Shown: positions 7,276-51,534 of the stretch, one piece after another
How the letters are laid out: each line of letters opens with the position of its first letter
Position numbering within the stretch: position 1 is the stretch's first letter
Notes under the pieces: model-generated
Told to the model about the DNA's origin: nothing
The model's database searches: none
What the model saw: the letters and a program-made list of their open reading frames with translations, nothing else
Program-made: the position numbers and the translations under genes
Origin: a virus
DNA length: 64,000 nt
Reading direction: 5' to 3' (one strand)
IMG/VR virus record: IMGVR_UViG_3300045988_082153
Span: 2,240-66,239 of that record

Positions 7276-7321
7276 TGGGTCTGCACGTTCTGCACACTAA
7301 TCATGCAGAATTTGTAGGCTT

Positions 7322-7374: not shown

Positions 7375-7410
7375 ACGATTTTTGATGAACAACAAAATAG
7401 AATTGAAATT

Positions 7411-10554: not shown

Positions 10555-11763
10555 ATGAGTAATTGGACAGAAGAACAGCAGGAACAGTACGAGCAGGGCA
10601 ATGATGGTGGATATACCCCACCTAAAGGTTCGCTTGACTGGGCCGAGCAGCCTACACAGCCAGAGCCAGCACCGAAAGGGACGGAGGCATGGACCGAGCA
10701 GCCTACACAGCCAGAGCCAGCACCGAAAGGGACGGAGGCATGGACCGAGCAGAACAGCGGAGGCAATGCACCGGAGCCGTCGGAGTCGAAAGAACCACCA
10801 AAGACAGATGTGGCACCACCTGCCGACAAGCCAGCCGGTGTGTCGCCACACAACGACACGATGGGCTACGACCAGCAGATAGCAGCCTTGCAGGAAGCCG
10901 CTAACCGCGTGAAGCCGGAAACCGAGGAGGAACGCAAGAAGAGAGAACGCAGAGAGAAGTCAGCGAAGATTGTTTCAGCTGTCAGCGACGGTCTGCAAGC
11001 GTTGAGCAACCTTTTCTTCACTACTCGCGGTGCTCCTAACATGTATGACCACAAGGAGGCAAGCCAGCTCACGCCATTGCAGGAGAAACTGGAGAAGCTG
11101 AAAGCTGAACGACAAGCCAACGCGGACAAATACCTCCAGTATTCACTCAAAATCGGTGACGCACAGAATGAGCGTGCCAAGACCTTGCGAGAGATGGAAG
11201 CTGAGCAGGAAAAGCAAAAATTGGCACGTGAAAAGGCACAACGTGAGCAAGAAGAGCACGGATGGCTTGCGGCATTGCAGCCAGACAAGCAGCGTGAGCA
11301 AGCTGGTAAGGCTACTAAAGCCGAACAGGAGGCTGTTACCGCCAAGGCAGAAGCGGACAATGCTCCTGATCTCTACAAGGCAAAGGTTGATACCGAAAAG
11401 GCACGAGGTGAGGCACAGAGAGCGTCGGCTGCATCAAGCCGGGCAGCGGCTACAGACCATTATGCTTCGGCAAGAGCGCACGACCGCTCCAACAACGACG
11501 AGTTCAGTGCATGGGACGAGAATGGACGCGAACACAAGTTCAGAACGGCAGCAGCTGCGGAGGCTTTTGCCAAACAGCACGGCACATTCGAGGAGACCGA
11601 TGTCACCTCTACAAGCACAACTGACAGCGAGACCAACGGCAAGTCCACTACTACCTACAAGAAGAAAAGTGGCTATGCCAAGCGCGTAGTTCCCGATAAT
11701 ACGCCCCCAAGCAGAAGACGCGGAGGCAATAAAGATAATACACCACCAAGCAGAAGAAGATAA
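10555..11763 (+). CDS. low-complexity coiled-coil virion protein candidate with internal repeats
   Basis: EQPTQPEPAPKGTEAWT occurs twice. E/K/A/Q-rich middle region. C-terminal DNTPPSRRR occurs twice. The stop overlaps the start of the giant ORF (TAATG). Confidence 0.7.
   Translation: MSNWTEEQQEQYEQGNDGGYTPPKGSLDWAEQPTQPEPAPKGTEAWTEQPTQPEPAPKGTEAWTEQNSGGNAPEPSESKEPPKTDVAPPADKPAGVSPHNDTMGYDQQIAALQEAANRVKPETEEERKKRERREKSAKIVSAVSDGLQALSNLFFTTRGAPNMYDHKEASQLTPLQEKLEKLKAERQANADKYLQYSLKIGDAQNERAKTLREMEAEQEKQKLAREKAQREQEEHGWLAALQPDKQREQAGKATKAEQEAVTAKAEADNAPDLYKAKVDTEKARGEAQRASAASSRAAATDHYASARAHDRSNNDEFSAWDENGREHKFRTAAAAEAFAKQHGTFEETDVTSTSTTDSETNGKSTTTYKKKSGYAKRVVPDNTPPSRRRGGNKDNTPPSRRR
10645..10746 (+). 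repeat. perfect 51-bp tandem duplication (2 copies) inside the CDS
   Basis: 10645-10695 is identical to 10696-10746 (GAGCAGCCTACACAGCCAGAGCCAGCACCGAAAGGGACGGAGGCATGGACC). Confidence 0.9.
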
Positions 11764-26700: not shown

Positions 26701-29700
26701 TGGCCGGCAAGTGGGTAGGCGAACCGAAGGAAGCAATGGAAAGTGCAATGAGCGATAGAGTGACCGAGTTGTCCGAACGTCTGCATACTCCAGTGCGCAT
26801 CATACGTACAGAGGAAGAAGTGGCTGCATTACCTTCCGTGCGCCAGCGCAGAATGAAGGGTAGCTTCAATCCTATGACCGGCGAGGTGACTATTGTTGTT
26901 CCCAACAATGCTAACATGGCAGACATTGAGAATACGTTTGTGCATGAGGTTGTGGGTCACGATGGTTTGCGCGTGCTGTTCCCTGATGAGGCTAAGCTGA
27001 ACAATGCCCTTGATGAACTCTATCGTGTGTCTAAGGACGAGATACGCGGTACCATTGACCGCATGGCGCAGAAGATGTACGATGCCGAGGTGGACCGCAT
27101 ACGTGAGAAGAAACGCAAGGAGCATGTAGCCAATGGAGAGGATGCCAACGCTTCATACTATGCAGACATGGCAGCAGCACATGCCGAAGCCGGAAAGAAG
27201 CGTGAGCAGTTCAAGCGTGATGCAACAGAGGAATATGGAGCCGACCTTGCCGGACGTATCGGTGAGAAAGGCTTCGAGATGATGAGTGCCGAAGAACTTA
27301 CGTTCTGGGGCAAGTTGAAAGCTATGCTCCAAAAAGCTCTACAAAAATTGTTGGACGGATTGAAAATCCCCGGCAAGAGAAAGTGGGGTGATAAGGACTG
27401 GGCGTTTGTTCTGCATGAGGCATACAAGCGTAAGAAGAATGGTGGTAAGCCTACTGTGTTCGATGCTGCTGATACTGAGGTTATGCGCAGAAGAACTGGC
27501 TTTGGAGATACTAAGTTCAGTGATGGAAAGCGTGAGCAACAGACTGCTAACGAACGTTTCAACAATGAACTTACACGCTATCAGAATGGCGAAATGGATA
27601 AGAACGAAATGCTACATCTTGGCAGACCACAAGGTGTAATGCGTACTTTCCTCCCAAACTTGCCTATTGTTATGCGTCAGCGTGTAATAAAGAAAGGTTC
27701 GGAGAAGAAGCATGACGTAGATGTATCTGCCATAATGAACATGCCGCAGCACTTATCTTCGCCTATATTCGTGTTCCAACGTAGCGAAGACACCATTGGC
27801 GTACTTACTGACATGAGAGACCGCAACGGCAAAAACGTATGTGTGGCTATTGAATTGAAGCGACAGATACAGCAAGGTGCGGAATATCTCGAAGTGAATG
27901 ATGTGCGTTCGTTCCACGGCAGAGAATTCAAGAACATCGTAGAACCGATTGCGAATAACAAGACATTGAAGTGGGTGGATAAAGAAAAAGGACTCGCTTA
28001 TCTCTCCTCAGCGTCACAACCGGTTCAGCAGGAAATAGACAAGCAAGTCCTTGATACTGCGACAAAGGTAGTCAAAGATTTTGTAAATCCCAAAGTTTCT
28101 GACGAAAATATTGCAGATGAGGGCATTATGTTCCGCGATGGTGACATGGGACTTGAAGAAACCATCACTAAGATGAAGGTTGAGGCAAGCCAAGCGAACG
28201 CCGACAACTGGCAAGCCAAGCAGGACGCAATGAGAGCCATCGGTGGCAATCTGAACAAATTGCGTCAGGCAATGGCACGTCAGAGAGAGTATGACCTATC
28301 AACCGTTAAGAGCATAACAGACCTTGCAAAGGTGTTGCTTGAAAACGGATTGCTCGATGATCTGAGCAAGTATGAGACAAAGCGCATCCTATCAGCCGTG
28401 AACAATGTACATGGCAAGCAGGACGTAAGTGATTACGTACAGAAGGTTATGGACATCATGGTTGACAACCAGCTACGCATGGGAGCTAACCAGCTGGGCA
28501 AACTACTTTCCATCCGTGGAAGCCGCGTTGACGCGCGAGGTATTGAGGTGCAAGGACAGCTTGACCCAGAAGGCCAGCGTATAGCGCAGGTGGTTAGGAA
28601 AGCTACTTCCTTACCAAAGGAGAACATAGAGGAGCGTATTGCAGACTGCACCAATCGTATGAGTAGTGACGACAATGCCGTAGCCGAGGAAGCAGCTATC
28701 GAGTACAGCGGTCTGTTGCTTGCCCATCAGTTTGTAGAGGACATCACCGAAAGCAAGGCAGAGGAAAAGGCTCTTCGTGAAAGCATTAAGGAAGCCAAGG
28801 CCGACTTGGATGCCGGAACGATGGAAGCCGATGCTTACCGTGAATACGTGGAGTCAACCAACGATGCCATCCGTCAGAATAAGATAGAGCGAGCCGAAGC
28901 CTACCGCAGCATAGTGGAGCAAGCAGGCGGTGTTCTTGGTGGCAGCGTTGAGCGAGCCAAGGCATGGCGTGAGGCAGAGAAGCAGCGCGTTGAGACCATC
29001 CATCACAATGCCAACTCCGATATGACCGGCAGACCTAACGACGAGCATCACAAGGAAAGCAAGGCACAGAAGATAGCCAATAACAGTATAGTGCGCTTTG
29101 TTCTTGCACCTTTAGGCACGTTCGACCAGATGCTGAGAATGTTCGGAAAGAAAAGCGTGAACGGTGAGGGCTACTTGTGGAACCGCTATATGCGTGGATG
29201 GGTTGAGGCTACCGAAAAGGAGTACACCGGTTATCAAAACGCCTTGAAGACGCTCGACGAGAAGGTTAGCGACCTATTCGGCAAGAAGATGAAATGGGGC
29301 GACCTATTCTCTTTGGAGCGCAACCTTCCAAAAGCGACCGTTACCTTCTGGGACGGTGGCGAGCAGAAGGCACACGAACTGACACAAGGCAACCTTCTGT
29401 ATATATACATGGTTGACAAGATGGCAGACGGCCGCATGAAGTTGCGCCGTATGGGCATCACCGAGGAAGATGTGGAGAACATAAAAGAATTTGTTGATCC
29501 TCGCTTCTTAGAACTTGCCGACTGGATGCAGGACGAGTTCCTTGTGGAAAAACGCAACGAGTACAACGAGGTGCATAAGCGCATGTTCGGTGCTTCAATG
29601 GCAGCGATTGAGAACTACTTCCCTTTGAAGATACTTGCCAATGCGAGAATTGAAGAAGTGGACGTAGCCGACGATACAACCGACACCGCATTACCGGCGA

Positions 29701-31743: not shown

Positions 31744-33702
31744 ATGGCAAGAAGAAAATTACATAAGGCGAGTGCTGTCATGCCTCATGAAGGAATGGAC
31801 AGCGTAGCTACAGCCAAGCACACGTTGGGCGGTAACCGTGCATTTGAGGTATTGTGGCAAGCCCAGCAGTATTGGCTTGCTATGGATACGTTCCGCAGAG
31901 ACCGTGAACGTAACAAGAACTACACCTACGGACGGCAGTGGGATGACTACGTTTGCGTGAATGGTCGGAAAATACGCGAAGAGGAACTCATCAAGAAGCA
32001 AGGTAATGTACCCTTGAAGAACAACCTCATTCGTCGTATGGTACAAGCTGTACTTGGTATATACCGCAGTCAAGCCAAAGAACCCACTTGTACGGCACGC
32101 GACCGCGACGAGCAGCGTTATGGCGAGACGATGAGTACCGTGTTGCAATGCAACATGCAGCTGAACCGCATGACAGAGATAAACGCACGATGTATGGAGG
32201 AGTTCCTTATATCGGGCTTTGTCGTGCAGCGTAAGTGGTATGGCTGGCGAGAAAACAAGCTGGACTGTTGGACTGACTATGTACAGCCCAACAACTTCTT
32301 CATCGATAACAACATGAGGGATTTTCGAGGTTGGGATTGCAGTTGTGTGGGCGAGGTGCATGACATATCGTTTGAGGAACTGTGCGGACGCTTTGCCAAG
32401 GACGGAAACGATTACAACCGTCTGGCCGAGATATACAAGTTTGCCAAAGACAAATCGTATCTCAGTGCTACGTTTAATCATTTTGGCCATCCTTTGCAGG
32501 GCAACTTTGATTTTTTTGTTCCGTATGATGTGACACGTTGTCGTGTAATAGAAGTGTGGAGGAAGGAAAGCAAACCACGTGTCCGCTGCCATGACGTAAA
32601 CAACGGCGATGTGTTCAAGATAGACATTGAGGATTTCCAAGCCCTTGTAACAGACGAAAACAACAAGCGTTTACAAGAGGCCCGTGAGCTTGGTATGGAC
32701 GAGAGCGATGTGCCGCTTATCCGTTGGGAGTGGTTTATGGATAGCTACTGGTATTATTACATGCTCACTCCGTTTGGTGACATTCTGGAAGAAGGCGAAA
32801 CCCCATACGAGCACAAGAGCCATCCGTATGTGTTCAAAGCATATCCGTTCATCGACGGTGAGATACATAGCTTTGTCAGCAATGTAATAGACCAGCAGCG
32901 ATACACAAACCGTTTGATTACGATGTACGACTGGATTATGCGAGCTTCGGCAAAAGGTGTGTTGTTGTTCCCGGAAGACTGCTTACCAAAGGGAATGTCA
33001 ATGGACGACGTTGCCGACGAATGGGCACGCTTCAACGGCATCATCATGATCAGGACACCGAAGGCCGGAACGCCATTGCCTCAGCAGATAGCCAACAACT
33101 GCACACAGATAGGTATCTCAGAGTTGCTGAGCATGCAGTTGAAGTTCTTCGAAGACATATCCGGCGTTAACGGCGCATTGCAAGGCAAGCCCGGTTATTC
33201 GGGTATGTCGGCCAGTCTGTACAATCAACAGGCACAGAACGCCTCAACGTCTCTGCTTGACTTGCTCGACACGTTCTCTTCTTTCGTAAAAGAAGGTGCG
33301 TATAAGGACGTGAAGAACATTCAGCAGTTTTACGACACGCCACGTGTATTCAACATTGCAGGAAAGAACTCTACCATTGTGGAGTACGACCCGAAGAAGA
33401 TACGCGACGTAGAGTTTGACCTTTCGATTGTGGAGAGCACAGCAACCCCAGCATACCGCGCTCTAACCAACGACATGCTTATGCAGTTGTGGGAAAAGAA
33501 CGCTATCAGCGTGGAGCAGCTGTTGGAACACGGCGACTTTCCATTTGCCGACGAGTTGCTGCAGAGCATCAAGTCACAAAGGGAACAGCTGGAACAAGGC
33601 AAGGTGCCGGACGGCATTTCTCCGGAACTTGCGCAGCAGGTTCATCAAAACGCAAACGCATCTGCCATGCAACAGGCACAGCAGATGTTACAAGCGGCTT
33701 AA
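31744..33702 (+). CDS. portal protein
   Basis: 652 aa. N-terminal FRRDRERNKNYTYGRQWDD (YxxGxQW portal-type motif). Adjacent to the large terminase. Confidence 0.7.
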   Translation: MARRKLHKASAVMPHEGMDSVATAKHTLGGNRAFEVLWQAQQYWLAMDTFRRDRERNKNYTYGRQWDDYVCVNGRKIREEELIKKQGNVPLKNNLIRRMVQAVLGIYRSQAKEPTCTARDRDEQRYGETMSTVLQCNMQLNRMTEINARCMEEFLISGFVVQRKWYGWRENKLDCWTDYVQPNNFFIDNNMRDFRGWDCSCVGEVHDISFEELCGRFAKDGNDYNRLAEIYKFAKDKSYLSATFNHFGHPLQGNFDFFVPYDVTRCRVIEVWRKESKPRVRCHDVNNGDVFKIDIEDFQALVTDENNKRLQEARELGMDESDVPLIRWEWFMDSYWYYYMLTPFGDILEEGETPYEHKSHPYVFKAYPFIDGEIHSFVSNVIDQQRYTNRLITMYDWIMRASAKGVLLFPEDCLPKGMSMDDVADEWARFNGIIMIRTPKAGTPLPQQIANNCTQIGISELLSMQLKFFEDISGVNGALQGKPGYSGMSASLYNQQAQNASTSLLDLLDTFSSFVKEGAYKDVKNIQQFYDTPRVFNIAGKNSTIVEYDPKKIRDVEFDLSIVESTATPAYRALTNDMLMQLWEKNAISVEQLLEHGDFPFADELLQSIKSQREQLEQGKVPDGISPELAQQVHQNANASAMQQAQQMLQAA

Positions 33703-39528: not shown

Positions 39529-40164
39529 ATGGTGTACAAAATCGAAGTCGTGGAGCGTGACGTGCGCATTGCCATTGACGAAAACAAGACAAACGATCAG
39601 CTCATCAGCGATGAGGACATTGACACCTTATCGTTGAATGACATCATCCGCTCAAAGATAGTTGAAGCCGTTCGGCGTGTAGAGTCGTCCGCTCCCGTTC
39701 ACTACTTGGAAGAAGGTCACGTGTTTGGCGATGCCATCTACTGGGAGAACAACGGAAGCGGTTGGACTCTGCTGCCCGATGATTTCATGCGTCTTGTAGC
39801 CTTTCGCATGAGCGACTGGGAACGCACCTGCTATATGGCCATATCAGCAGACGACCCATTGTATGATTTGCAATCGTCAAGATACAAGGGTATTCGCGGC
39901 AATGTCCAAAAGCCGGTGTGTGCCGTAGTGAACCGTGCCGAGGGCAAGGTGTTGGAGTTCTACAGTTGCAACAGTGAAGAAGCCTACGTGAAACGTGCCT
40001 CATACATTCCTTATCCGAGCATAGACGAGGAGGACGGCATAGACATCAGCGAGCGTTGTTACACAGCCGTGGTCTATACTACGGCTGCATTAGTATTAAC
40101 CGCCTATGGTGCGAGCGAGCAAGCTGCCGCAATGAACACCTTGGCAAAAAGCATTTTTGAATAA
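39529..40164 (+). CDS. hypothetical virion protein (head-tail connector/adaptor position)
   Basis: 211 aa. Its stop overlaps the tail-fibre start (TAATG). Confidence 0.6.
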   Translation: MVYKIEVVERDVRIAIDENKTNDQLISDEDIDTLSLNDIIRSKIVEAVRRVESSAPVHYLEEGHVFGDAIYWENNGSGWTLLPDDFMRLVAFRMSDWERTCYMAISADDPLYDLQSSRYKGIRGNVQKPVCAVVNRAEGKVLEFYSCNSEEAYVKRASYIPYPSIDEEDGIDISERCYTAVVYTTAALVLTAYGASEQAAAMNTLAKSIFE

Positions 40165-43100
40165 TGAGTTCAATACCAACAAAACAGATAGATGGTGACG
40201 TTGCGGTTAGTCGTGACGTTAACATCGGCGGCAAGGCCACCATACGCGGTTCGGCAAAGGTCGGCCACAATCTGACCGTTGACGGCTGGCTTGAAGCCAA
40301 GAACATAAAAGGCCCGAACAAAGGCCTGTTCAAAACGGCGGCACAGCTACGCGAGGCTTACCCTAATCCTCATGAAGGATGGTGGGCGTTGGTGACCGTA
40401 GAAGGCAGTGCAGCGTCAGATCATCTTGGCCAGCTCTATGTAGCTGACGGTGGTACATGGGTAGCGCAAGTTGACAGCAACGGTAATCCGCTGCTGAAGG
40501 GTAATCCTACGGTTGATAGCACCGAGTACATGGAAGCCGTGGAGGGAATGACAGCCGATCTCGAAGCCGTGAAGGTGGACGTTAACCAGAACAAGAGCGA
40601 CATCAGCAGTTTGCGCACCACGCAGACCACGCAGGGTAACAGCATCAACACTCTAAATACCCAGATGAATACTGCACAGAGCGACATAACAACTCTGAAA
40701 AAGACCGTCAGTGACAACAAAACGGAACTTGCCAAGGGTGTGGCGGAAGTGCAGAGTGACCTCAACACTTTCAAAAAGACCAAAGGAGAGGCAGGAGGAC
40801 TGGCACCGCTGGACGAGAACGGACAGGTGTCTTCGCAATATCTGCCCAGTTATGTGGACGATGCCTTGGAATTTGGCTGCATCGTAAGTGATGTAACAGC
40901 GCAGATGTCTTCTGTATCTAAAAAATCAGATGATGAAAACTGCTCGGTTGTTTATAACAAGACAACCAACACTTTCTTACTGAAATATTCCAAGCCATCA
41001 GAGTCTGAATTTGACTTACGTCCGACTATCACTTACTACAACAATTGGCTCGATGGTGACTTGTACGGTGAAGCCACCATGAACGGTCGTGTGCCCCACA
41101 GCGGCAAGATATTCATGGACGTAAGCACCAACAAGACCTACCGCTGGGCAGGGACAAAACTTGCCGTAATCGGTTCAGACCTTGCGCTCGGTCATACCAG
41201 CGGCACCGCATTTCCTGGTAATGAAGGAGCCGACATTCAGGAACGTATGAACGAGGTGGAGAGTACAGCTGACATCAACCGTCAACTGATAGAAAATACC
41301 TCCACAGAACTACTATGTCGCAACACAATCAATGCTAATAACCTGCTATCGTTGGGCGAAAGGGAGGTGACACTATCTGTTGTGCTTGAAAAAATCTTCG
41401 ATTTGGAGAACAGCGTGCGCTATATGAAGCCCGGTATTGTTCTATCATTCCTTTCAGAAACAGGCATACAAAACAAGCAGTGGACGAACTACGGCAAGAA
41501 AACAGAAACAGATTGGAAAACCGAGGCCAACTGGACAGACTTCGGCTCGAACGGCAGTGCCATAGGCAACACGGTGAATGTAAATGACATCTGCGATGAT
41601 ACTGAATACACCCTTTCTACCGCCATAAAAGCCGTGCTCGACAAGGAGAAAGAGAGCGGACTGTCGTATATGAAAGCAGGTGTTGTGCTGACCTACAAGA
41701 CCGCAGACATGACCAGCAACGGCTCGCCCAAATGGGAAGCCTACCAATTCACACGCAACGTAGAAGACATCAACCCAGCCGACTTGAAGCCGTGGGTGGA
41801 GTTTGGCGGAGGCGGCAACAATGCCGTACCCACCTCGGACACCCCAGAGAAAGACGGCAAGGAAGCCTTCTCGACAGGCGGCGCATACACCAACATACCC
41901 AACAACCTGCGCATCGACACCGAAACCCAAGGTGTGGTGAAACTCCAGCTGGAGAACGCCGAGCATGAAGCCGTGGGCGATGAGGTGCAGTTTGCCGTAG
42001 GCGGCGGTGGTGGAGAGAGTACAGGCACCATTGTGAGCATACAGTTTGAGCAAAGTCCGCTCTATGCCAAGGCAGGAGGCAGCGTGGTGATGAAAGCCGC
42101 CGTGCGAAGCATCACCACGCAAGGCAACAACGAGCTGAGCAACATGATAGAAAAGGTGGTTCTGAAAGACCGCGACACGGGACAGACCTTGGAGACTTTC
42201 ATGTTCAACCGCGCCTCGTCAGCCAGCGGAGACACCTACGACTTCGAGATGGACGTGAGCAGCTACTTCGTGACCGCCACAACAAAGAGGTTCCAACTCA
42301 TAGCCTACGACGATGCAGGAAACACGGGAAGCCGCAACATCAACGTGAGCGGTGTGGACGTGACCATCAGCAGTGTGCAGACACTGAACTACACCAGCAG
42401 CACCTCGCTTGCCGTAGGCGGAGTCGCCAAGAGCATACCGATGTACAAGTTTGCCAACAACGCTTCGGACAAGGGCATCAAGGTTATTACCGAGATATAC
42501 ATGAACGGCGAGTGGAAGACCCTCGGCGAGCAGACCATACTTGACACCTACTCGCATAGCATCACCGTGGATCCAAAGAGCTGCTTGACTGAAGCACTCA
42601 CGCACGGAGCCTATCCCCTGCGCATCCATGGCGAAGATGTGGGCAGCGGTGTGAGGGGCAACTACCTGCATACCGCCATTATGGTAGTGGAAGCAGGGAA
42701 CAATACCCCAATCATCGCCATGCGGTGGTACACCGACCAGCTGAAAGGCAAGCGCAAGCTATACGAGAACATCGAAATAGACTATGCCGTGTATGTAGGC
42801 GACAACGATGAGCCGCAAGCCACCATACTCTATGACGGAGCAAAGGAGACCACCGCCATAGCCTACCGCCAGCAGACCAACACCTACACCAAGCAAGTGC
42901 TTGAGAGCGTGCATGACGGCACGAAGAGCGTGTCGGTGCAAGTGACGTGCGGCGACAGCCAAGGCGAGACCGCTACATTTGTGGTGGACGGTTCGCTTGT
43001 AGACGTGGAAGAAGTGACCACCCTCAGAGAGTTCAACATCACAATGGACTCACGCAGCAACGGCGAGACCGACAAGAGCATCAAGGACGGCAGCGTGGAG

Positions 43101-46100
43101 GTGAACGTGGAGAACTGTAACTGGAGCAGCAACGGCTTTGTAAAGGACACCTACGGCACACCCACCTACGGAACGGAGAACGACAAGGGACGCATGGCAC
43201 TGCGCATAGCAGAGGACATGAAAGCCCGATGCACCTACAAACCATTCTCCGGCACAAGCATCGAGCAGAACGGACTGGCACTGAGTTTCACCATCAAGGT
43301 GAAGAACGTGGAAGACCGCACGGCAAGGCTCATAGACTGCCTTGGCGACAACTCGCTCGGCTTCTATGTGACAGGCGAGAAGCTTGTATTCACCTGCGAC
43401 GGAGCCACCGCCGCCAACCAAGACGACCTTGGCGCACAGCAGACCGCCGTAGCCCTGTATGCGACCGACAAGGAGACCCGCTTTGACATCGTGATAGAGC
43501 CGACCAGCATTGCCCCCTACTCGGGTATAGGCAGCATCAAGATATATGTGAACGGAGACGAGGTAGCAGCCACCTACTACAATGCAGGACGCTTCGCGCA
43601 CAACGACATGACGATGCTCTTTGACGGCACAAAAGCCGACATCTACCTGTACCGCCTCACGGCATGGGCGACCTACTACAACTACCGCCAAGCGTTCAAC
43701 AACTACCTCGTAGGACAGAAAGACACCACCGCCATGCTGACCGAATACGAGAAGAACCAAGTGATGGCATCGCAGACGGCAGAGGGAATAACCAAAGACC
43801 GCCCCACACTGCAAGCGTGCATGAACGCAGGACTGTGCTGCGTGACGCTGCTGAAGAACGCCGACACCCCCGACATAGAGCAGAGCTACCCCGGCTACCT
43901 TGACAAGCTGGACGGCGACAAGAAGACCAAAGCCTACTTTGACTGGGTAATCCGTTTTCCCGACCGCCCATGGCAGGACTGCAAGGTGTACAATGTGCCG
44001 ACCACCAACCAAGGCACGACCTCATCGCTTCGCCCAATCAAGAACAAGAAAGGCAAGTTCAAGGGCTGCAAGATTGAGATGCTCCACACCGAGGAGGACT
44101 TCAAGGACAACCCGACGGCACTCGCTAAGTTCAAGACGGCACAGAAGATGGCAGCGAAGAGCCAAATACAGGTGATAGACGGCGGCTTGTGGGTAAAGAC
44201 CATAACAATCAAGGTGGACTATTCCGACTCGACAGGCGCGAACAACGGAGCCACGATGGAACTGTTCAACAAGGTGCAGCGCGCCATGGGAGCCGACTAT
44301 ATGACCCCTGCACAGAACGCCTACAACGGCGAAGGCACGATGAACACCAGCATCGACAGCGTGACGTGCGCCCTGTTCCGCACCGACCAGCAGAGCGTGG
44401 ATGCCACCAACGAGACCTACGCCTACTTCCATGCCAAGGCCAACTTCAACGTGGACAAGGGCAACCCCTCTTTCTTCGGCTTCGAGAAAGTGAGCGGCTA
44501 CAACGGAGATTGCTTGAACTATGGCGACTTCAAGGAACTCGTGGCAGAGAAAGGCCAAGACATCAACATCTTCAAGGTACAGTCCCTTGCCAAGAGTGAC
44601 GAACTCATAGCCTCGAACATCTACATGCTCTCGGAGTACTGCGGCGAGAAGCACATCTTCCTGGAGAATGACGGTACGGGAAAAATGGCAGAGTGTGATG
44701 CTACCGCCGACCCGACCGAAGTGGACAAGAGCCTTGCCGAAGTCATTGCCGATGATGTGAAGAACTATGACTGGGGAACGGTGTACTTGACCAACGACTA
44801 CAAGTATGTGAAGTACACAGGCGGCAAGTGGAAAGACACCACGGGCAAGATGCAGTATGACCAGAGCGTGAAGAAATGGACGGTGACAGGCAGAGTGCTG
44901 AACCCTGTGGAGTGCTTCGAGTACTTGAAGTATGACAGTCTGTGCTGGCTGCAAGGCGTGAACGGCATCGAAGACATGATGAAGCTCGACCCTGCCACAA
45001 GCAAACCCATCTGGCTGAGTTACTACGAAAGCCGATACCCCGATGATGACGACTTGAACGACCTGTATGCGCAGGGCAAGAAAGTGCCGTACCGCCTGTA
45101 CAAGTGGCTGCGGTGGACGCAAGACTGCTCGCAAGACCGCACAGAGGCAGACGGCGACATCACCATTCACGGCAAGACCGTGGCAGGAACCAAGGAGAAC
45201 CGTCTGAAGAAGTTCTGCGAAGAGCTGCACGAATGGGCCAACGTGAAATCCACATTGTCGTATGTGGTGGGCAGCGATTATGTATTGGCCGTTGACCAGC
45301 GAAGCAAGAACATGATGATAACGTTCTACCTCGACACCAACGGACTGGTACGCGCCTACTTCAACCACTGGTATGATGGTGACTGCGTGTGGCTCTCGGA
45401 CAACGACTGCGGTGTGACCATACCTTGGGACTTGGACAGCAAGGTAGACCCCAAGCACTACTACCAAGGCTGGAACTCGGTGATGTTCCAGCAAGCGTAT
45501 GCAGGAGACAAGTTCTGGCTTGACGACAAGGGCAGCACTACCGTAACACTGCATGATGTGGCGCAGGATATGCGCACGGCAGAGGCAGACGGCATCAAGA
45601 TATTCTCGGCAGACGGCTGCAAGAAGCTGTGGATAACCGACCGCATAGACAAGTGGGCGAAGATAACCAGTTCGTTTGACAACGAGCGCAAATACATAGA
45701 GAACTCCAAGGCAGGAGCCAACTACTACTATGCCGTACACGGACTGAGGTATGAAGACCTGCCTGTAACGTTTGAGAAGCGTTTCGCCTATCGTGACGGC
45801 TTCTACCAAGTTGGCGAGCTGTACACCAACCCGTTCAAGATGCGTGCCGTGGGTACGGACATCAGCATCAAGATAACGGCAGCGCAGGACGCATTCTTCG
45901 GACTGGGTGTGGACCGTGCAGACGCTTGTGTGGACAGCTGTTACCTCAAAGCAGGAGAAAGCTATACGCTGAAGAGCGGCATGACCGCCACAGGCTCGGG
46001 AACGATGCTCTATGTGTTTGGTGCGAAATACCTTGCCAGCCTTGACGTGAGCGGCTGCACACCAAAGGCAGAGGGCTGGGACATCAGCAACTGCGACCTG

Positions 46101-48386
46101 CTGCAGGAGATAATCATCGGCGGTGAGGACTACACGCCAGAAGAAGGCAGCGGAGCCATCACCCAACTGAACATGGGCAACAAGAGTTTCTTGAAGCGCA
46201 TAGACGTGCGGAACACGAAGATAACGAGCATCATAGCCTCGTACTGTCCACGGCTGACCGAGGTGCTGGCGAGCGGTTCGCAACTTGCGAGCATTGACTT
46301 GGCAGAGACCGCCCCGATAGAAACGCTACAGTTGCCCGGTACTATGACCACACTCTACTTCAAGAACCTGCCACGGCTGACCTATCCCGGCGGACTGACC
46401 ATTGAGGGCGGCATGAGCAAGGTGACGAAGATGTTCTTGGACGAATGTCCGAAGATAGACACCATGACCTTGCTGCGGCAGATAACCACGGCAGGAGCGT
46501 TGAAGAGTGTGCGCATACCCGGCATCAATGCCACGGCAAGTGTGGAGATGCTGCGCGCTATAAAGAATAGCGGTGCCGTGGGAATAGATGCCAACGGAGC
46601 AACCTACGATGAGAGCGGCCAGTGTAGTGGACTGTTGGGACGCTGGATATTGACAGAGTTGGTGGAAGATGAAGAGGTGGAAGCCCTGCAAACGTACTTC
46701 CCCAGACTGACCGTCATCAACTCGCAGTTCTCCATGGTGAAGATAGACGATGTAGTGAGCGGCGACTTCTGCGAGAAATACAGCAATCCCGAGAACGAGA
46801 CAGGTGCCGACTACGACAAGACATTCGTGGCAAGCGGACACACACTGAAAATCGTGCAGAACACCCATGCCTACAAGTGTACCTACAACAGTAAGTTGAA
46901 ACAGATGGAAGGCAGACAACTGAGCGACACCGACTTCAACCGCCTCATTAACGGCGAAACCTTTGATGTGGGCGACAGCGCAGGAGAAGGCTTCGACATC
47001 TTCCACCATTTACCCCACTTCTGGTACAAAGGTGTGAACGACTACAAGAACCAAGTAAAGTATATCTTCCACTCAATGACCGACAACGAGCCGCTGACCA
47101 CCGTAGGCAAGAAGAAAGAAGCAATGCTTTCGGAGTTGCTCTATGCCGAGAATACAGGCATCTATGCAGACGAGGCGCAGGAGGGCGAGACCATCGGCGA
47201 CAACATCATCACGACAGCCGCCAACGTGAATGCCTACCGCATGGACGTGGAAGGCATGAAGCAAGTGAGGTGGCCTGGACTGAACCATGCAAGGCTCGGA
47301 GCCGTGTTCACCGATGCGAGCGGAAAGATAGTAGGCAAGTTCATCATGATGGTGAGCCACACCTACTTTGACTTCACCATAGGCAAATATGTGTTCTGTG
47401 ATGTGCCGAACGGTGCCAAGTGGATGTACTTCACATCGTATCGCGACATCGAAGACACCATGTGTCTTGCCGTTGACAGCGAGAGTTTGGAAGCCATAGA
47501 ACCCGAATGGACGGAGCATACCGTGGGCGATGTGGACAGCCTCGTTGGAACGTACCCCATAACCATAGACGGACTGAAACGCCCCCGAAGCATATCGGGA
47601 GCGGTGCGTTCGAAGAAAGGCGACGGAACATCGCAGACCTCAAACGAATGGGCATACGACAGCGAGGGCAACCCGACGGAGATGCCTAACGGCACGTTGC
47701 ACTTCACCGACAAGGACTTCCAGAACTGCTGCCGTATGCGTGGCGAGGGTTATCAGTTGCAAGACTACGAGATGCACAAGGAGATAAGCAACCTGTGGTG
47801 GGCAACGCACGGCACGACCAACGAGCAAGCCGTTGTGGGCAACGGAGCGCATGATGCGATACTGAACAGCCGCGACGACATAGGCATGGCCGACACCGCC
47901 TATGTGGGCAATGCGATGAACTCAATCATGGGCTTGAAGCACTATGTGGGCTGTGACTCGGAGTGGATGGACTACATAGCAGGAAACGTGAAGAGCTACA
48001 CAGAGTTCTACAAGAACAGATGCGTGGAGACAAACGACGACCCTGTGGACTATGTGTTCCACATCTACGACCCGATAAAGAAGACAGAGCGCATGGTACA
48101 GAGCGTTACCAGTGGCGGCAACTGCGTGGTGAGAGTTGTGCATGGAGCCAAGTGCGACATATTGCCCAGCAAGGTGCATCAGACCGACACCAGCAAATAC
48201 ACGACCCACTATGCGGCAGGACTATGGTTCCCCGGCAGCAGAGGCCGCTGTGTTCTGCGGTCTGGCAACTACTCGTATGCGAACAGCGGTCTCGCTTGTG
48301 CGTACGCGAACTACGCTTCTTCGCACTCGTACACGGACTACGGCGGTCGGCTGGCCTTCCGCGGAAAATTCGTGATTGTTGACTAA
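40164..48386 (+). CDS. giant tail fibre / receptor-binding protein (2,740 aa), the DGR target
   Basis: Fibre-type N-terminus and coiled coil (..GEAGGLAPLDENGQVSSQYLPSYVDD). Leucine-rich repeats at about 46030-46600. C-terminal C-type-lectin-like variable region ending ..GRLAFRGKFVIVD. Confidence 0.85.
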   Translation: MSSIPTKQIDGDVAVSRDVNIGGKATIRGSAKVGHNLTVDGWLEAKNIKGPNKGLFKTAAQLREAYPNPHEGWWALVTVEGSAASDHLGQLYVADGGTWVAQVDSNGNPLLKGNPTVDSTEYMEAVEGMTADLEAVKVDVNQNKSDISSLRTTQTTQGNSINTLNTQMNTAQSDITTLKKTVSDNKTELAKGVAEVQSDLNTFKKTKGEAGGLAPLDENGQVSSQYLPSYVDDALEFGCIVSDVTAQMSSVSKKSDDENCSVVYNKTTNTFLLKYSKPSESEFDLRPTITYYNNWLDGDLYGEATMNGRVPHSGKIFMDVSTNKTYRWAGTKLAVIGSDLALGHTSGTAFPGNEGADIQERMNEVESTADINRQLIENTSTELLCRNTINANNLLSLGEREVTLSVVLEKIFDLENSVRYMKPGIVLSFLSETGIQNKQWTNYGKKTETDWKTEANWTDFGSNGSAIGNTVNVNDICDDTEYTLSTAIKAVLDKEKESGLSYMKAGVVLTYKTADMTSNGSPKWEAYQFTRNVEDINPADLKPWVEFGGGGNNAVPTSDTPEKDGKEAFSTGGAYTNIPNNLRIDTETQGVVKLQLENAEHEAVGDEVQFAVGGGGGESTGTIVSIQFEQSPLYAKAGGSVVMKAAVRSITTQGNNELSNMIEKVVLKDRDTGQTLETFMFNRASSASGDTYDFEMDVSSYFVTATTKRFQLIAYDDAGNTGSRNINVSGVDVTISSVQTLNYTSSTSLAVGGVAKSIPMYKFANNASDKGIKVITEIYMNGEWKTLGEQTILDTYSHSITVDPKSCLTEALTHGAYPLRIHGEDVGSGVRGNYLHTAIMVVEAGNNTPIIAMRWYTDQLKGKRKLYENIEIDYAVYVGDNDEPQATILYDGAKETTAIAYRQQTNTYTKQVLESVHDGTKSVSVQVTCGDSQGETATFVVDGSLVDVEEVTTLREFNITMDSRSNGETDKSIKDGSVEVNVENCNWSSNGFVKDTYGTPTYGTENDKGRMALRIAEDMKARCTYKPFSGTSIEQNGLALSFTIKVKNVEDRTARLIDCLGDNSLGFYVTGEKLVFTCDGATAANQDDLGAQQTAVALYATDKETRFDIVIEPTSIAPYSGIGSIKIYVNGDEVAATYYNAGRFAHNDMTMLFDGTKADIYLYRLTAWATYYNYRQAFNNYLVGQKDTTAMLTEYEKNQVMASQTAEGITKDRPTLQACMNAGLCCVTLLKNADTPDIEQSYPGYLDKLDGDKKTKAYFDWVIRFPDRPWQDCKVYNVPTTNQGTTSSLRPIKNKKGKFKGCKIEMLHTEEDFKDNPTALAKFKTAQKMAAKSQIQVIDGGLWVKTITIKVDYSDSTGANNGATMELFNKVQRAMGADYMTPAQNAYNGEGTMNTSIDSVTCALFRTDQQSVDATNETYAYFHAKANFNVDKGNPSFFGFEKVSGYNGDCLNYGDFKELVAEKGQDINIFKVQSLAKSDELIASNIYMLSEYCGEKHIFLENDGTGKMAECDATADPTEVDKSLAEVIADDVKNYDWGTVYLTNDYKYVKYTGGKWKDTTGKMQYDQSVKKWTVTGRVLNPVECFEYLKYDSLCWLQGVNGIEDMMKLDPATSKPIWLSYYESRYPDDDDLNDLYAQGKKVPYRLYKWLRWTQDCSQDRTEADGDITIHGKTVAGTKENRLKKFCEELHEWANVKSTLSYVVGSDYVLAVDQRSKNMMITFYLDTNGLVRAYFNHWYDGDCVWLSDNDCGVTIPWDLDSKVDPKHYYQGWNSVMFQQAYAGDKFWLDDKGSTTVTLHDVAQDMRTAEADGIKIFSADGCKKLWITDRIDKWAKITSSFDNERKYIENSKAGANYYYAVHGLRYEDLPVTFEKRFAYRDGFYQVGELYTNPFKMRAVGTDISIKITAAQDAFFGLGVDRADACVDSCYLKAGESYTLKSGMTATGSGTMLYVFGAKYLASLDVSGCTPKAEGWDISNCDLLQEIIIGGEDYTPEEGSGAITQLNMGNKSFLKRIDVRNTKITSIIASYCPRLTEVLASGSQLASIDLAETAPIETLQLPGTMTTLYFKNLPRLTYPGGLTIEGGMSKVTKMFLDECPKIDTMTLLRQITTAGALKSVRIPGINATASVEMLRAIKNSGAVGIDANGATYDESGQCSGLLGRWILTELVEDEEVEALQTYFPRLTVINSQFSMVKIDDVVSGDFCEKYSNPENETGADYDKTFVASGHTLKIVQNTHAYKCTYNSKLKQMEGRQLSDTDFNRLINGETFDVGDSAGEGFDIFHHLPHFWYKGVNDYKNQVKYIFHSMTDNEPLTTVGKKKEAMLSELLYAENTGIYADEAQEGETIGDNIITTAANVNAYRMDVEGMKQVRWPGLNHARLGAVFTDASGKIVGKFIMMVSHTYFDFTIGKYVFCDVPNGAKWMYFTSYRDIEDTMCLAVDSESLEAIEPEWTEHTVGDVDSLVGTYPITIDGLKRPRSISGAVRSKKGDGTSQTSNEWAYDSEGNPTEMPNGTLHFTDKDFQNCCRMRGEGYQLQDYEMHKEISNLWWATHGTTNEQAVVGNGAHDAILNSRDDIGMADTAYVGNAMNSIMGLKHYVGCDSEWMDYIAGNVKSYTEFYKNRCVETNDDPVDYVFHIYDPIKKTERMVQSVTSGGNCVVRVVHGAKCDILPSKVHQTDTSKYTTHYAAGLWFPGSRGRCVLRSGNYSYANSGLACAYANYASSHSYTDYGGRLAFRGKFVIVD
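48244..48359 (+). repeat. DGR variable repeat (VR)
   Basis: 116 nt aligned to 49198-49313 with 11 mismatches, all at positions where the template repeat has A. Confidence 0.93.
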
Positions 48387-48415
48387 GCGGAAAGCGAAAG
48401 CTCGAAAAAAGCGTC

Positions 48416-48458
48416 AGAGGGAGAGCCGACGAAAGGAGGCTGCTCCCTCTCCCTTTTT
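48416..48458 (+). terminator. intrinsic terminator 1 after the tail-fibre gene
   Basis: GAGGGAGAGCC / GGCTGCTCCCTC stem (11 bp with one bulge), followed by TCCCTTTTT. Confidence 0.55.
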
Positions 48459-48481
48459 ATCTCGCGTCAGCGAGATTTTTT
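48459..48481 (+). terminator. intrinsic terminator 2
   Basis: ATCTCGC-GTCA-GCGAGAT is a perfect 7-bp stem followed by TTTTT. Confidence 0.6.
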
Positions 48482-48534
48482 ATAGGCTCTGCAAAATAAA
48501 AGTAAAAGTTGTATGATATATCAACTTTTTGTAT

Positions 48535-48542
48535 TACCTTTG
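48535..48542 (+). promoter_or_regulatory. -7 box TACCTTTG placed 4 nt before the toxin ATG (leaderless-type promoter)
   Basis: Exact TAnnTTTG match. The same geometry is seen at 58567-58574 (-). Confidence 0.4.
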
Positions 48543-48546
48543 CACC

Positions 48547-48882
48547 ATGAACTCAGAACGGAGAATACTGGTTTACAAAGATTATTTCCTCACGTTCTAC
48601 CGCGCCTTGGAAGCAGGAGCGCAGAAGAAGATAGACTATGTGCTTGATGTGCTGAAGATGCAGGACAGAGTGAGCGAAAAATTTGTAAAGTACATAAAGG
48701 ATGGTCTCTATGAAATAAGAGCCTCCTACAATGGTAATATATATCGAGCGTTCTTCATTTTCGACGAGGGCAACATCGTGATGCTCTTCAACGGCTTTCA
48801 GAAGAAAACCCAGAAGACACCCTCCAAAGAGATAGACAGAGCACTTGAACTTAAAAAGGAATATTATGCAGGAAAGAAATGA
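48547..48882 (+). CDS. RelE/ParE-superfamily toxin, phage Gp49/HigB-like
   Basis: ATG at 48547. DGLYEIRASYNGNIYRAFFIFDEGNIVMLFNGFQKKTQKTPSKEIDRALELKKEY is the typical Gp49-like/DUF891 pattern. Confidence 0.8.
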   Translation: MNSERRILVYKDYFLTFYRALEAGAQKKIDYVLDVLKMQDRVSEKFVKYIKDGLYEIRASYNGNIYRAFFIFDEGNIVMLFNGFQKKTQKTPSKEIDRALELKKEYYAGKK

Positions 48883-49168
48883 CATTAGCAGTTTTGATGC
48901 CATTCTTGACGCCAAGTATGGAGCAGTAGGAACTGCGGAAAGAGAGGCTTTCAGAAAAGAAGCCACCAACTATTGCGTGGGACAGATTATCTATGATGCC
49001 CGTAAGCAGGAGCACATGACCCAATCTGACCTCGCAAAGAAAGTCGGTACGGACAAGACCTACATATCACGCATAGAGAAAGGTGTGATAGAGCCTGGTG
49101 TGGGAATGTTTTTCCGCATCATTGACGCTTTGGGACTAAAAGTGGACATTGTGCGTCCGATAGTATAA
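48866..49168 (+). CDS. XRE-family HTH antitoxin (HigA-like)
   Basis: MTQSDLAKKVGTDKTYISRIEKGVIEPGVGMFFRIIDALGLKVDI. It overlaps the toxin stop by 17 nt. Confidence 0.8.
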   Translation: MQERNDISSFDAILDAKYGAVGTAEREAFRKEATNYCVGQIIYDARKQEHMTQSDLAKKVGTDKTYISRIEKGVIEPGVGMFFRIIDALGLKVDIVRPIV

Positions 49169-49197
49169 CAAGAAACAAAAGGCAGAAAATCCCACGC

Positions 49198-49313
49198 GCC
49201 GCTGTGTTCTGCGGTCTGGCAACAACTCGAATGCGAACAGCGGTCTCGCTTATGCGAACGCGAACAACGCTTCTTCGAACTCGAACACGAACTACGGCGG
49301 TCGGCTGAAATTC
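49198..49313 (+). repeat. DGR template repeat (TR)
   Basis: Non-coding copy of the VR, rich in AAC triplets, lying 99 nt upstream of the RT ATG. Confidence 0.93.
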
Positions 49314-49411
49314 TAAGTGGTACTTAATCGGGGGACTCTGACGTGGCACGAGGATTGCCGCAAACAAACTCCGAGGGATTAGAGCCTCGGCAACAGCATG
49401 ATAAACGAATT

Positions 49412-50899
49412 ATGGAAAGCCGGAACACGACATTAACCACATGTGGGGAGTGCGCAAGTATCTCCCCACAGGACAGGAAGGCTGTCAACACATTGGAAGA
49501 CTTGTTAGGACAGGTAGAAGCACCGACTTCTATCTGTTTTCCTTTATATAACCTCATCCCAGAAATTATTTCGGACGAAAACATGGAACGCTCGTTCAAG
49601 CGTGTCATGTCGAACCTTCATAACGCAGACACGCGAAGCGGAATAAAATGGAGGGAGACGGTTGTTATAGATGGTGTGGAATGTACTCCACGCATGGTGC
49701 GCTATATGAGACGCAAGAAAGAAATTATTGCCGAGTTGAAAGAACAAATAGGTAATGGAACTTTCCGCGTTGTTCGTTTATCCTCGTTTGAAGTGGACGA
49801 TGGTCCGAAGAAAAGAATGGTTCAAGCACCTCCTGTTGTGAAACGTATAGGCTGCAATGCCATCATGGAGATTGTGGAAAAACACCTTTCGCCATTGCTA
49901 ATTGAAAACACGGCAGCTTCGATAGAAGGACGCGGCCCACACGGACTATTCCACAAGATGCAGGAAGTGAGAGCCGAGAACCCCGACCTTATATATTATT
50001 ATCAAAGCGACTATAAAGGTTATTATGACCACATATTGCACGACAAGATGATTGACATCATCAAGCAGTATATAGCCGACCCGATATTACTCCCCATACT
50101 AATAGACTTCGTTAAAGTATTGCACCCGGATGGCAACGTAGGCATCAGCAAGGGACTACGCTCCTCGCAGTTCTTCGGCAACCTGTACCACAATGACATT
50201 GACCATGCCATGATAGAGGAGTGTGGAAAGGATAACTACAACCGCTTTTGTGACGACATATACATATATGGAGACAACAAAAAAGAGTTGTGGAAACACA
50301 GGGACACACTGCATAGGCTAAGTAAACCCTACAATCTGATAATCAAGCCGAGCGAGAAGGTTGCTCCAGTGAGTGCAGGAATGGATGCACTGGGTTATAT
50401 TGATTATGGTGACCACTCACGAATACGCAAGCGCACAAAGGTGAACGCTGCGAGGAAACTCGCCAAGATAAAGTCGAGAAAGCGAAGGCAACAAATTATA
50501 GGCTCGTTCAAAGGAATGGCATGTCATGCGGACTGCCAGCATTTATATTATATATTAACAGGTAAAAACATGAAGAAATTTTCAGAAATGGGCGTGACCT
50601 ATAAGCCAGCAGACGGAAAGAAACGTTTTCCCGGTAAGGTGACACGCTTGGGTGACATCGTGAAAATCCCGGTAGAAATTCACGACTACGAGACACTGGA
50701 CACGAAGTTTGGCGAAGACCGCTACTTAGTGTCGTTCAAGAACCCTGCGACACAGGAATGGGGCAAGTTCTTCACCGCTTCGGACGAGATGAAAGGCATC
50801 CTTGACCAGATAAGCGACATCGAGGATGGCTTTCCGTTTGAGACCGTCATCAAGTGCGAACAGTTTGACGGCAGCAAGCGAAAGTATAACTTCACCTAA
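49412..50899 (+). CDS. DGR-type reverse transcriptase with a roughly 100-aa C-terminal extension
   Basis: PLYNLIPEIISDENMERSFKRV (N-terminus), QSDYKGYYDHI (motif A), GLRSSQFFGNLY (DGR SQ motif), FCDDIYIYG (xxDD), SFKGMACHADCQHLY. This is followed by an extra domain, KNMKKFSEMG..KRKYNFT. Confidence 0.88.
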   Translation: MESRNTTLTTCGECASISPQDRKAVNTLEDLLGQVEAPTSICFPLYNLIPEIISDENMERSFKRVMSNLHNADTRSGIKWRETVVIDGVECTPRMVRYMRRKKEIIAELKEQIGNGTFRVVRLSSFEVDDGPKKRMVQAPPVVKRIGCNAIMEIVEKHLSPLLIENTAASIEGRGPHGLFHKMQEVRAENPDLIYYYQSDYKGYYDHILHDKMIDIIKQYIADPILLPILIDFVKVLHPDGNVGISKGLRSSQFFGNLYHNDIDHAMIEECGKDNYNRFCDDIYIYGDNKKELWKHRDTLHRLSKPYNLIIKPSEKVAPVSAGMDALGYIDYGDHSRIRKRTKVNAARKLAKIKSRKRRQQIIGSFKGMACHADCQHLYYILTGKNMKKFSEMGVTYKPADGKKRFPGKVTRLGDIVKIPVEIHDYETLDTKFGEDRYLVSFKNPATQEWGKFFTASDEMKGILDQISDIEDGFPFETVIKCEQFDGSKRKYNFT

Positions 50900-50972
50900 A
50901 GCGACTCACTAAAGATAAAAGCGTGAATTGGGCTGCATACTATATCTTTGCCTCAACAAAATCATAGCGACA

Positions 50973-51443
50973 ATGGAAAAGATATACGGCACAACCAAAC
51001 GTCAGGACGGACTGCAACGAGTAGGCAAGAATAAATGGCTGCTCTATTTCGGTCTGTATGAAACAGAGAGCGGTACATACGAATACCGCCATACGTTCAC
51101 GCACAAGCCCACGCTTGACGAGATAAAGAAACTTGTTTGGGCTACGATAGACGCAGAGACCAAAGACAAGATTGTTAATCAGTTTGAGTATGAGGGCATC
51201 AAGGTTTGGCTCACAGACGAGAAGCAGCGTAACTTTGCCTCTATTGAGAACAACGAAAGTGTTACATTCCCACTTACGTTGAAGCTCAACGAGAAAGCCG
51301 ACGCTACACCAATCTATCATACCTTCCAGACGCGAGACGAGTTCAAGAAGTTCAGCGAGGCCGCTGCATGTTTCATTCTTGAAACCATCAGGAACGGATG
51401 GAAGGAGAAGGACAATGTAGATTGGGACGTGTTTGACATGTAA
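50973..51443 (+). CDS. hypothetical; DUF4376-like (tail-fibre assembly-associated) pattern
   Basis: ATG at 50973. ATIDAETKDKIVNQFEYEGIKVWLTDEKQRNFASI resembles the DUF4376 motif (from memory). Confidence 0.55.
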   Translation: MEKIYGTTKRQDGLQRVGKNKWLLYFGLYETESGTYEYRHTFTHKPTLDEIKKLVWATIDAETKDKIVNQFEYEGIKVWLTDEKQRNFASIENNESVTFPLTLKLNEKADATPIYHTFQTRDEFKKFSEAAACFILETIRNGWKEKDNVDWDVFDM

Positions 51444-51534
51444 TCACAACATTATCAATAAGAGGAACAGGAGAAATCTTGCTCCTCTTTTTTTGTGCTA
51501 CAATAGTTAAAACGACGCTCACCGGTTAAGTCGC

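Follow-up and report, generated by a model that had tools for sequence, protein, structure and literature searches.

A predicted toxin-antitoxin cassette between the variable and template repeats of an Avd-less, Hankyphage-type diversity-generating retroelement

The stretch analyzed here, called the window, is 64,000 nucleotides (nt) of viral DNA from IMG/VR record IMGVR_UViG_3300045988_082153 (positions 2,240 to 66,239), and it carries a diversity-generating retroelement (DGR). Two small overlapping genes lie between the variable repeat (VR) and the template repeat (TR) of this DGR. We conclude that they are very probably a selfish or addiction-type toxin-antitoxin (TA) cassette in an Avd-less DGR of the Hankyphage type, and not a part of the retrohoming machinery. 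The initial annotation of the window had offered two readings of the pair, a selfish or addiction insertion and the recruitment of a RelE-fold protein with its helix-turn-helix (HTH) partner as an accessory or regulatory factor for the TR RNA. The first reading is favored by our results, as the cassette was found to be autonomous and sporadically distributed.

The gene pair and the DGR around it

The two genes and the DGR parts that define their position are listed below.

48547..48882, + strand: toxin gene, Gp49/HigB type with a RelE fold, 111 amino acids (aa), isoelectric point (pI) 9.5, identified through Pfam Gp49 and HigB structures
48866..49168, + strand: antitoxin gene, XRE/HTH_3, 100 aa, identified through HTH_3 (E = 3e-14) and antitoxin-type NCBIfam models
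40164..48386, + strand: DGR target gene, 2740 aa, tail-fiber-like, with VR at its 3' end (open reading frame call)
48244..48353, + strand: VR, a 110-nt direct repeat of TR, 93% identical
49198..49307, + strand: TR with 24 adenines, found by repeat comparison
49412..50899, + strand: DGR reverse transcriptase (RT), 495 aa, identified through Pfam RVT_1

The toxin open reading frame (ORF) matched Pfam Gp49 (PF05973) with E = 1.2e-22 and 80 bits (cutoff 23.9), and its nearest solved structures were HigB toxins (PDB 6af3, E = 5e-5). The toxin gene comes first, the antitoxin gene follows on the same strand with a 17-nt overlap, and both are located between VR and TR. This supported the earlier description of the pair as overlapping genes for a 111-aa Gp49/HigB RelE-fold protein and a 100-aa XRE HTH protein. 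Purifying selection was strong on both genes, with ratios of nonsynonymous to synonymous substitution (dN/dS) of 0.01-0.11 for the toxin and 0.02-0.21 for the antitoxin, and a genome scan seeded with the toxin found toxin and antitoxin passed on as a unit in at least 75 loci. As predicted from its genes, the pair is a self-contained type II TA cassette of the HigBA or Gp49(Tad)-XRE(Ata) kind, and, going by the Pfam family name, we take it to be akin to the Tad-Ata pair of phage N15 (gp49-gp48). Growth inhibition by mRNA cleavage, neutralization by the antitoxin, and an addiction phenotype would be expected of such a pair, and the strong purifying selection on both genes gives indirect support for a toxin with its neutralizing antitoxin.

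The DGR in the window is a working one of the textbook type. RT and TR are accompanied by a VR that sits within the last 143 nt of the target ORF and differs from TR at TR adenines only (8 mismatches in 110 nt, 8 of 8 at adenines). TR starts 954 nt downstream of VR, and the same adenine-only pattern was repeated in more than 100 related loci. Homologues of the large target are present in the phages BS-TP4 and BKO1-TP3. Against the RT of BS-TP4, the window RT shows 73% identity; against the Hankyphage RT, which belongs to the same RT family, identity is about 40% across residues 33-495.

Distribution, mobility, and history of the cassette

Natural variation was examined through an IMG/VR scan seeded with the window RT, which gave 80 loci with RTs 70-99% identical. 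The interval between VR and TR held the window-type pair (type A) in 31 of the 80 loci and a different Gp49 and HTH_3 pair (type B, as in BS-TP4) in 33. There was no pair in 11 loci, VR and TR had collapsed in 1, and the remaining 4 were truncated contigs. The RTs of the 11 pair-less loci are 93-98% identical to the window RT, the starts of VR and TR are separated by 347 nt, and the spacer is free of ORFs. These loci had one common TR and 11 distinct VRs, and all mismatches (146/146) were at TR adenines; therefore, retrohoming works without the pair. Mismatches between VR and TR numbered 11-17 in the pair-less loci compared to 5-17 in close pair-bearing relatives.

A second survey was seeded with the RT of locus L096, which is 48% identical to the window RT, and 61 loci were examined. 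An ORF-free VR-TR spacer of 120-230 nt with adenine-specific mismatches was found in 59 of them, and the other two duplicated the query lineage. The type-A pair was present only in this query lineage, and relatives at 92, 85, and 79% RT identity were without it. At least 45 distant relatives without the pair still showed adenine-specific VR variation. The native layout of the RT family is VR, about 200 nt without an ORF, TR, and RT, with the slot empty. The pair was gained sporadically. The slot had been described earlier as that of Avd, which holds for its position, but this RT family natively has nothing between VR and TR.

The type-B pair belongs to the BS-TP4 clade (RT 70-73% identical). 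Its identity to type A is 30-45%. The type-B genes are non-overlapping, and the cassette brings its own GTTC...GAAC palindrome and promoter to the same slot. The two cassette types share their orientation and register. The pair is not conserved with RT in the manner of Avd, as it is missing in the 11 close and at least 45 distant relatives and is swapped for another pair in another clade.

The cassette was also found away from DGRs. The toxin-seeded scan, limited to one genome per species, gave 80 loci at 57-96% identity. Nearly all of them had the antitoxin attached, and approximately 73 had no RT within 5 kb. Copies with 72-86% nucleotide identity, including promoter and palindrome, were found on the chromosomes of many Bacteroidales genomes, distant from any RT, and their nucleotide homology with the window was confined to approximately 48504-49161, from just upstream of the palindrome to the end of the antitoxin gene. 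Examples of the flanking genes are PHO4, Crp, and glycogen-debranching enzyme genes at one site, an amino-acid permease and RpoD at another, RhuM at a third, and TPR protein and thioredoxin reductase genes at a fourth. The pair is thus an autonomous module that occurs in unrelated genomic contexts. An origin of the cassette by RT template switching on a TA mRNA was considered and rejected, because what the chromosomal copies have in common with the window extends upstream of the transcription start and takes in the promoter and operator.

Our favored explanation is that a TA cassette (approximately 48504-49168, comprising a predicted promoter with a candidate palindromic operator, the toxin gene, and the overlapping antitoxin gene) became lodged in the noncoding VR-TR spacer of about 200 nt in this family of Bacteroidales phage DGRs. 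It behaves like a selfish addiction or moron module, with entry into the slot, swapping, and loss from it.

Two points weigh against a purely selfish insertion. First, most loci of three RT clades have a Gp49/XRE pair in the slot (type A in 31 and type B in 33 of the 80), and such a pair is seen once more in the lineage whose RT is only 48% identical. Such recurrence exceeds random insertion, and there may be a benefit that is selected in this position. Second, the synonymous divergence (dS) between the window and the clade with 86% identical RT was 0.8-1.3 for the pair and 1.0 for RT. Since the pair has diverged in step with RT, it was inherited with the DGR for some time, and these values indicate a pair long kept beside RT, not just recently dropped in.

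Substitution rates also bear on the number of entries. Between type A and type B, dN was 0.5-0.8 for the pair compared to 0.2 for RT. This gap indicates that neither type derived from the other on that timescale and that at least two cassettes entered the slot. The pair of the L096 lineage is a probable third entry, called a gain by parsimony only, as dS is saturated and the dN ratios fit vertical or horizontal descent.

A rival account is a benefit to the lysogen. On this account, the pair is kept for abortive infection or phage exclusion, or for stabilization of the prophage or the VR-TR interval, and its location in a DGR is incidental. The phage is temperate, with an integrase-like ORF at 7321-8907, and its relatives BS-TP4 and BKO1-TP3 are temperate isolates (PMC12694917). 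Three chromosomal loci (L083 248-1008, L087 4472-5883, and L101 129-1046) retain an intact type-A pair and TR, with at most a short RT stub, between housekeeping genes. These loci look like decayed prophages of which the cassette is the survivor, and an intact pair in such remnants is the pattern that would be expected of an addiction module outliving its prophage. In L087, a fragment similar to the integrase region of the window (7168-7667) stands directly before the pair. The toxin also matches NsnC in PADLOC (E = 2.4e-13), but the match is limited to the RelE-like C-terminal region of a longer model. Stabilization of the interval would have an object, since recombination between VR and TR does delete it, as seen in BKO1-TP3 and L076. 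However, these collapses occurred in lineages that carried the pair, so the pair was no barrier to them. We regard a benefit to the lysogen as possible but rather doubtful.

The collapsed loci are BKO1-TP3 (L002, PQ571269), with a single VR/TR-like copy left at 8001-8115, and L076, with one at 5777-5886. The remaining copy is a hybrid whose 5' flank comes from the target gene and whose 3' flank comes from TR, and all of its adenines are TR-like. Compared to L071, both show a clean 1008-nt deletion by recombination between VR and TR, which removed the pair. The cultured temperate phage BKO1-TP3 should be left with a dead DGR.

The region 47187-51443 is strongly mosaic, with recombination breakpoints that appear to cluster around VR and TR. 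When the window was compared to the pair-less locus L013, the DUF4376 gene next to RT was identical, the dS of RT was 0.18, and that of the target C-terminus was 1.4. The pair of locus L007 is nearly identical to that of the window, and the dS of the target C-terminus was 1.07. VR and TR are 83-90% conserved between clades, and we suggest that they might serve as homology arms for moving the intervening DNA.

Some relatives have a TR depleted of adenines, with 10, 18, 16, and 22 left compared to the usual 24-25. These are L037, L033, and L038 (TR at approximately 5791-5900), L048 (TR at 5782-5891), and L067 (VR at 59-168, TR at 1071-1180). The adenine-poor TRs resemble their own VR, and in L067 the two are identical. 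Gene conversion from VR to TR, or homing misdirected into TR, may account for this.

Transcription of the cassette, TR, and RT

The signals around the cassette and the TR-RT core are given below.

48417..48482, + strand: two terminator-like hairpins after the target gene, GAGGGAGAGCC...GGCTGCTCCCTC with a T-run followed by ATCTCGCGTCAGCGAGAT with a T-run (hairpin search)
48506..48527, + strand: inverted repeat AAGTTG-N10-CAACTT covering the -33 region, a candidate operator for the antitoxin; the exact copy is unique in the window
48535..48542, + strand: Bacteroides-type -7 box TAccTTTG for a leaderless or near-leaderless message, 4 nt from the toxin ATG, from consensus match and conservation
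49177..49197, + strand: leader box AAAAGGCAGAAAATCCCACGC, abutting the 5' side of TR, found before TR in type-A, type-B, and pair-less loci
49371..49390, + strand: hairpin CCGAGG-GATTAGAG-CCTCGG between TR and RT, also conserved in L013 and in BKO1-TP3
51469..51495, + strand: terminator-like hairpin with a T-run, likely the end of the transcription unit (hairpin search)

The two terminators that had been noted before the pair were located at 48417-48458 and 48459-48482, and the first of them is kept in relatives with and without the pair. The leaderless-type TAnnTTTG promoter attributed to the pair was likewise found, as TAccTTTG 4 nt before the ATG, and its place, sequence, and spacing to the ATG were conserved in every type-A copy examined. 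In all type-A copies examined, whether in DGRs or on chromosomes, the AAGTTG and CAACTT arms of the palindrome are conserved and its center is variable. Palindrome and box accompany the cassette in all contexts. We infer that the palindrome functions as an operator bound by the antitoxin. No other copies of the palindrome were found in the window that could mark an antitoxin regulon elsewhere in the phage.

The box at 48535 is the sole TAnnTTTG on the + strand within 42974-50943 and, hence, the sole one from the target stop to the RT stop. TAnnTTTG was not enriched across the window (36 found compared to 32 expected) and, therefore, only its positional conservation was used as evidence. Our promoter calls are consensus matches backed solely by conservation.

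Of 37 distinct spacers from pair-less relatives, 27 have a TAnnTTTG box at a distance of 15-35 nt before TR. The chance expectation for such short stretches is well under 1%, so this box is very likely the native TR-RT promoter. In the pair-bearing loci, there are 12-30 nt from the antitoxin stop to TR, and the only TAnnTTTG box is the cassette's own. In the window, the antitoxin stop is 8 nt from the leader box AAAAGGCAGAAAATCCCACGC, and no terminator or promoter motif was found between them. Since the cassette occupies the position of the native promoter and no element separates its antitoxin gene from the TR leader, TR and RT of the pair-bearing phages are probably transcribed from the TA promoter. 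Most likely, they would form the 3' part of the TA message. The leader box and the TR-RT hairpin are probably functional parts of the TR RNA. A conserved AAAGG(C/T)AGA... box abuts TR in the window and in the pair-less relatives (spacers of L165-L222).

This arrangement could be adaptive. Transcription of TR and RT might be under the control of the antitoxin or of TA autorepression, with diversification gated by the state of the cassette (e.g., through stress or antitoxin turnover), and such coupling would be compatible with a selfish cassette. In its favor, the native box of the pair-less spacers is absent in pair-bearing loci, where no terminator separates the antitoxin stop from TR. The conserved palindrome overlaps the cassette promoter, two different cassettes share one orientation and register, and, in Bacteroides, avd/TR/rt transcription is reportedly the step at which DGR activity is controlled (bioRxiv 10.1101/2024.11.15.621889). 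However, read-through from the target gene or an unrecognized internal promoter could also supply the transcript, VR diverges to a similar degree whether or not the pair is present, so that no effect on the output is visible, and the shared orientation may be the sole arrangement that spares the DGR. Adaptive coupling is, in our view, unlikely. The idea of a regulatory factor in the initial annotation is not sustained as a requirement for retrohoming, but a weaker form of it survives, in that the cassette promoter probably drives TR and RT.

A more specific proposal, which we consider improbable, is that the cassette has replaced the native TR-RT promoter in these phages, and that an antitoxin-repressed, toxin-modulated promoter now governs synthesis of the template RNA and RT and, with it, fiber hypermutation. 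If this were true, diversification would be tied to whatever physiological state the cassette senses. Selection for this coupling, or for VR-TR protection, would then explain two captures of unrelated Gp49/XRE pairs in the same place and orientation.

The search for Avd and comparison with known systems

No Avd was found in the window, in agreement with the initial annotation. None of the 104 window ORFs of 80-260 aa matched PF05635 in Pfam at E ≤ 0.01, a PHROGs scan of the same ORFs found no Avd, and the pair ORFs, RT, and the three small ORFs downstream of RT had no Avd match in Pfam or NCBIfam. A cryptic Avd in the window was rejected on these scans. The pair ORFs do not have the sequence or fold of Avd and match Gp49 and HTH_3 instead.

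In the 518-aa ORF scanned from the GTG at 49343, the RVT_1 match covers residues 156-352, which are approximately residues 133-329 of the 495-aa RT. RT has an N-terminal extension of about 130 aa and a C-terminal extension of about 115 aa, both kept down to the Hankyphage RT (aligned residues 33-495), and these extensions might relate to an Avd-independent function.

One further candidate adjoins RT.

50973..51443, + strand: DUF4376-type protein, 156 aa, pI 5.5, identified through homology and fold

This gene had a homologue downstream of RT in 164 of 164 RT-bearing loci, and almost always the distance from the RT stop was no more than about 150 nt. Its product is 28% identical (E = 2e-20) to a Hankyphage ORF labeled 'Avd' in a GenBank record. 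The first description of Hankyphage had put forward an Avd on the basis of size and isoelectric point only (PMC6199706). The RT-adjacent protein is acidic (pI 5.0-5.5). Its own Pfam match to DUF4376 is below threshold (17.2 bits, cutoff 25), but its Hankyphage homologue passes at 29.7 bits. A single-sequence AlphaFold2 model was unusable (predicted local distance difference test score, pLDDT, of 40), and a model from the alignment reached a pLDDT of 93 with a mixed alpha/beta fold. This model had no match among PDB structures. In BFVD, it matched DUF4376 proteins from a wide range of phages, and several of these phages belong to groups in which DGRs are not known. The link to the DUF4376 family was made because the Hankyphage homologue passes and because of these fold matches. 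A 33-sequence profile of the family found no Avd among PDB sequences. The gene was therefore rejected as an Avd homologue, given its acidic pI, alpha/beta fold, DUF4376 relatives, and lack of an Avd profile match.

DUF4376 proteins are tail-fiber chaperones encoded just after the fiber genes in Alteromonas phages (PMC7289586, PMC10579305), and the 'CH1' gene of Avd-less Bacteroides Lineage 3a DGRs encodes a protein of 160-169 aa with a pI of 4.7 (PMC5758913). The product of 50973-51443 is probably such a chaperone or a 'CH1' protein, the latter assignment being a match of descriptions (size, pI, host, and architecture), not a comparison with CH1 sequences. The gene labeled 'Avd' or CH1 beside Hankyphage-type RTs may, then, be a fiber chaperone and not a retrohoming factor.

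Elsewhere in the window, a single uninterrupted ORF at 11763-31685 encodes 6640 aa and takes up nearly one-third of the phage genome of approximately 64 kb. It ends just upstream of a P22-like portal gene at 31744-33702.

The lack of Avd makes it tempting to see the pair as its replacement, with a RelE-fold protein and HTH partner needed for TR-RNA handling or cDNA synthesis, as the pair is common in the clade, the toxin is small and basic, and the position is analogous to that in avd-TR-brt, but natural variation largely refutes this very improbable reading: the 11 close and at least 45 distant DGRs that lack the pair diversify, no gene fills the slot across the wider RT family, the cassette is mostly far from any RT, two non-orthologous pairs use the slot, and BKO1-TP3 exists in culture without one. 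Absence of the pair from otherwise syntenic DGRs had been named in advance as a result that would speak against recruitment, and it was found in these same relatives. This removes the tempting but wrong idea of a RelE-fold RNase recruited as a DGR accessory factor.

Several earlier descriptions fit parts of the locus. DGRs without Avd make up 29% of a curated set and include Bacteroides Lineage 3/3A (PMC5758913; see also PMC7290462 for a crAss-like phage). The same study reported 'X' architectures, with nested ORFs between target and TR-RT core, and judged these ORFs to be non-accessory since they are not conserved (PMC5758913). The window shares with these Lineage 3/3A DGRs (Wu et al. 2018) the order of target with VR, TR, and RT without avd, the non-conserved nested ORFs, and an acidic 'CH1'-like gene of about 160 aa flanking RT, and its RT was placed in Lineage 3A by matching descriptions of size, pI, host, and architecture and not by direct sequence comparison. 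In contrast to the nested ORFs of that study, those in the window are a TA cassette that appears to replace the TR-RT promoter. Our literature search, which did not extend to the supplementary tables of nested ORFs in Wu et al., found no description of a TA pair between VR and TR or upstream of TR, nor of a DGR driven by a TA promoter.

Repeated Gp49/XRE capture exactly at the TR-RT promoter position is of mild interest, as a putatively autoregulated promoter may now drive the DGR. The natural near-isogenic sets (type-A, type-B, pair-less, and collapsed by recombination between VR and TR) could be used to study the control of TR and RT transcription in gut phage DGRs, and they include two cultured temperate phages, BS-TP4 with a pair and BKO1-TP3 in the collapsed state.

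Compared to known HigBA and Tad-Ata modules, the pair has the same Gp49/HigB toxin first, the same overlapping XRE-HTH antitoxin, and a palindrome over its own predicted promoter, and it is likewise an autonomous two-gene unit of prophages and chromosomes. The copy in the window, a TA module by prediction, differs in lying inside a DGR with no terminator before TR. Hankyphage (Bacteroides phage p00) has an RT with both extensions, a very large tail-fiber target, TR directly upstream of RT, and a DUF4376 gene directly downstream, but only a 64-aa hypothetical ORF lies between its VR and TR and there is no TA pair. BS-TP4 (PQ571277) is of the same phage family and has gp15 and gp16, annotated as 'Addiction module toxin RelE' and 'transcriptional regulator', in the same slot between target and RT; this pair is a non-orthologous Gp49/XRE cassette with its own operator, and the BS-TP4 publication makes no comment on it (PMC12694917). 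In the avd-TR-brt arrangement of BPP-1, a small gene likewise stands immediately upstream of TR and is probably co-transcribed with TR and RT. Avd of BPP-1 is an essential, basic helical-bundle pentamer that binds RT (PMC5758913), whereas the two proteins of the pair have unrelated folds and are dispensable. Thus, the locus falls into known categories, as a HigBA-like cassette nested in an Avd-less DGR of the Hankyphage type.

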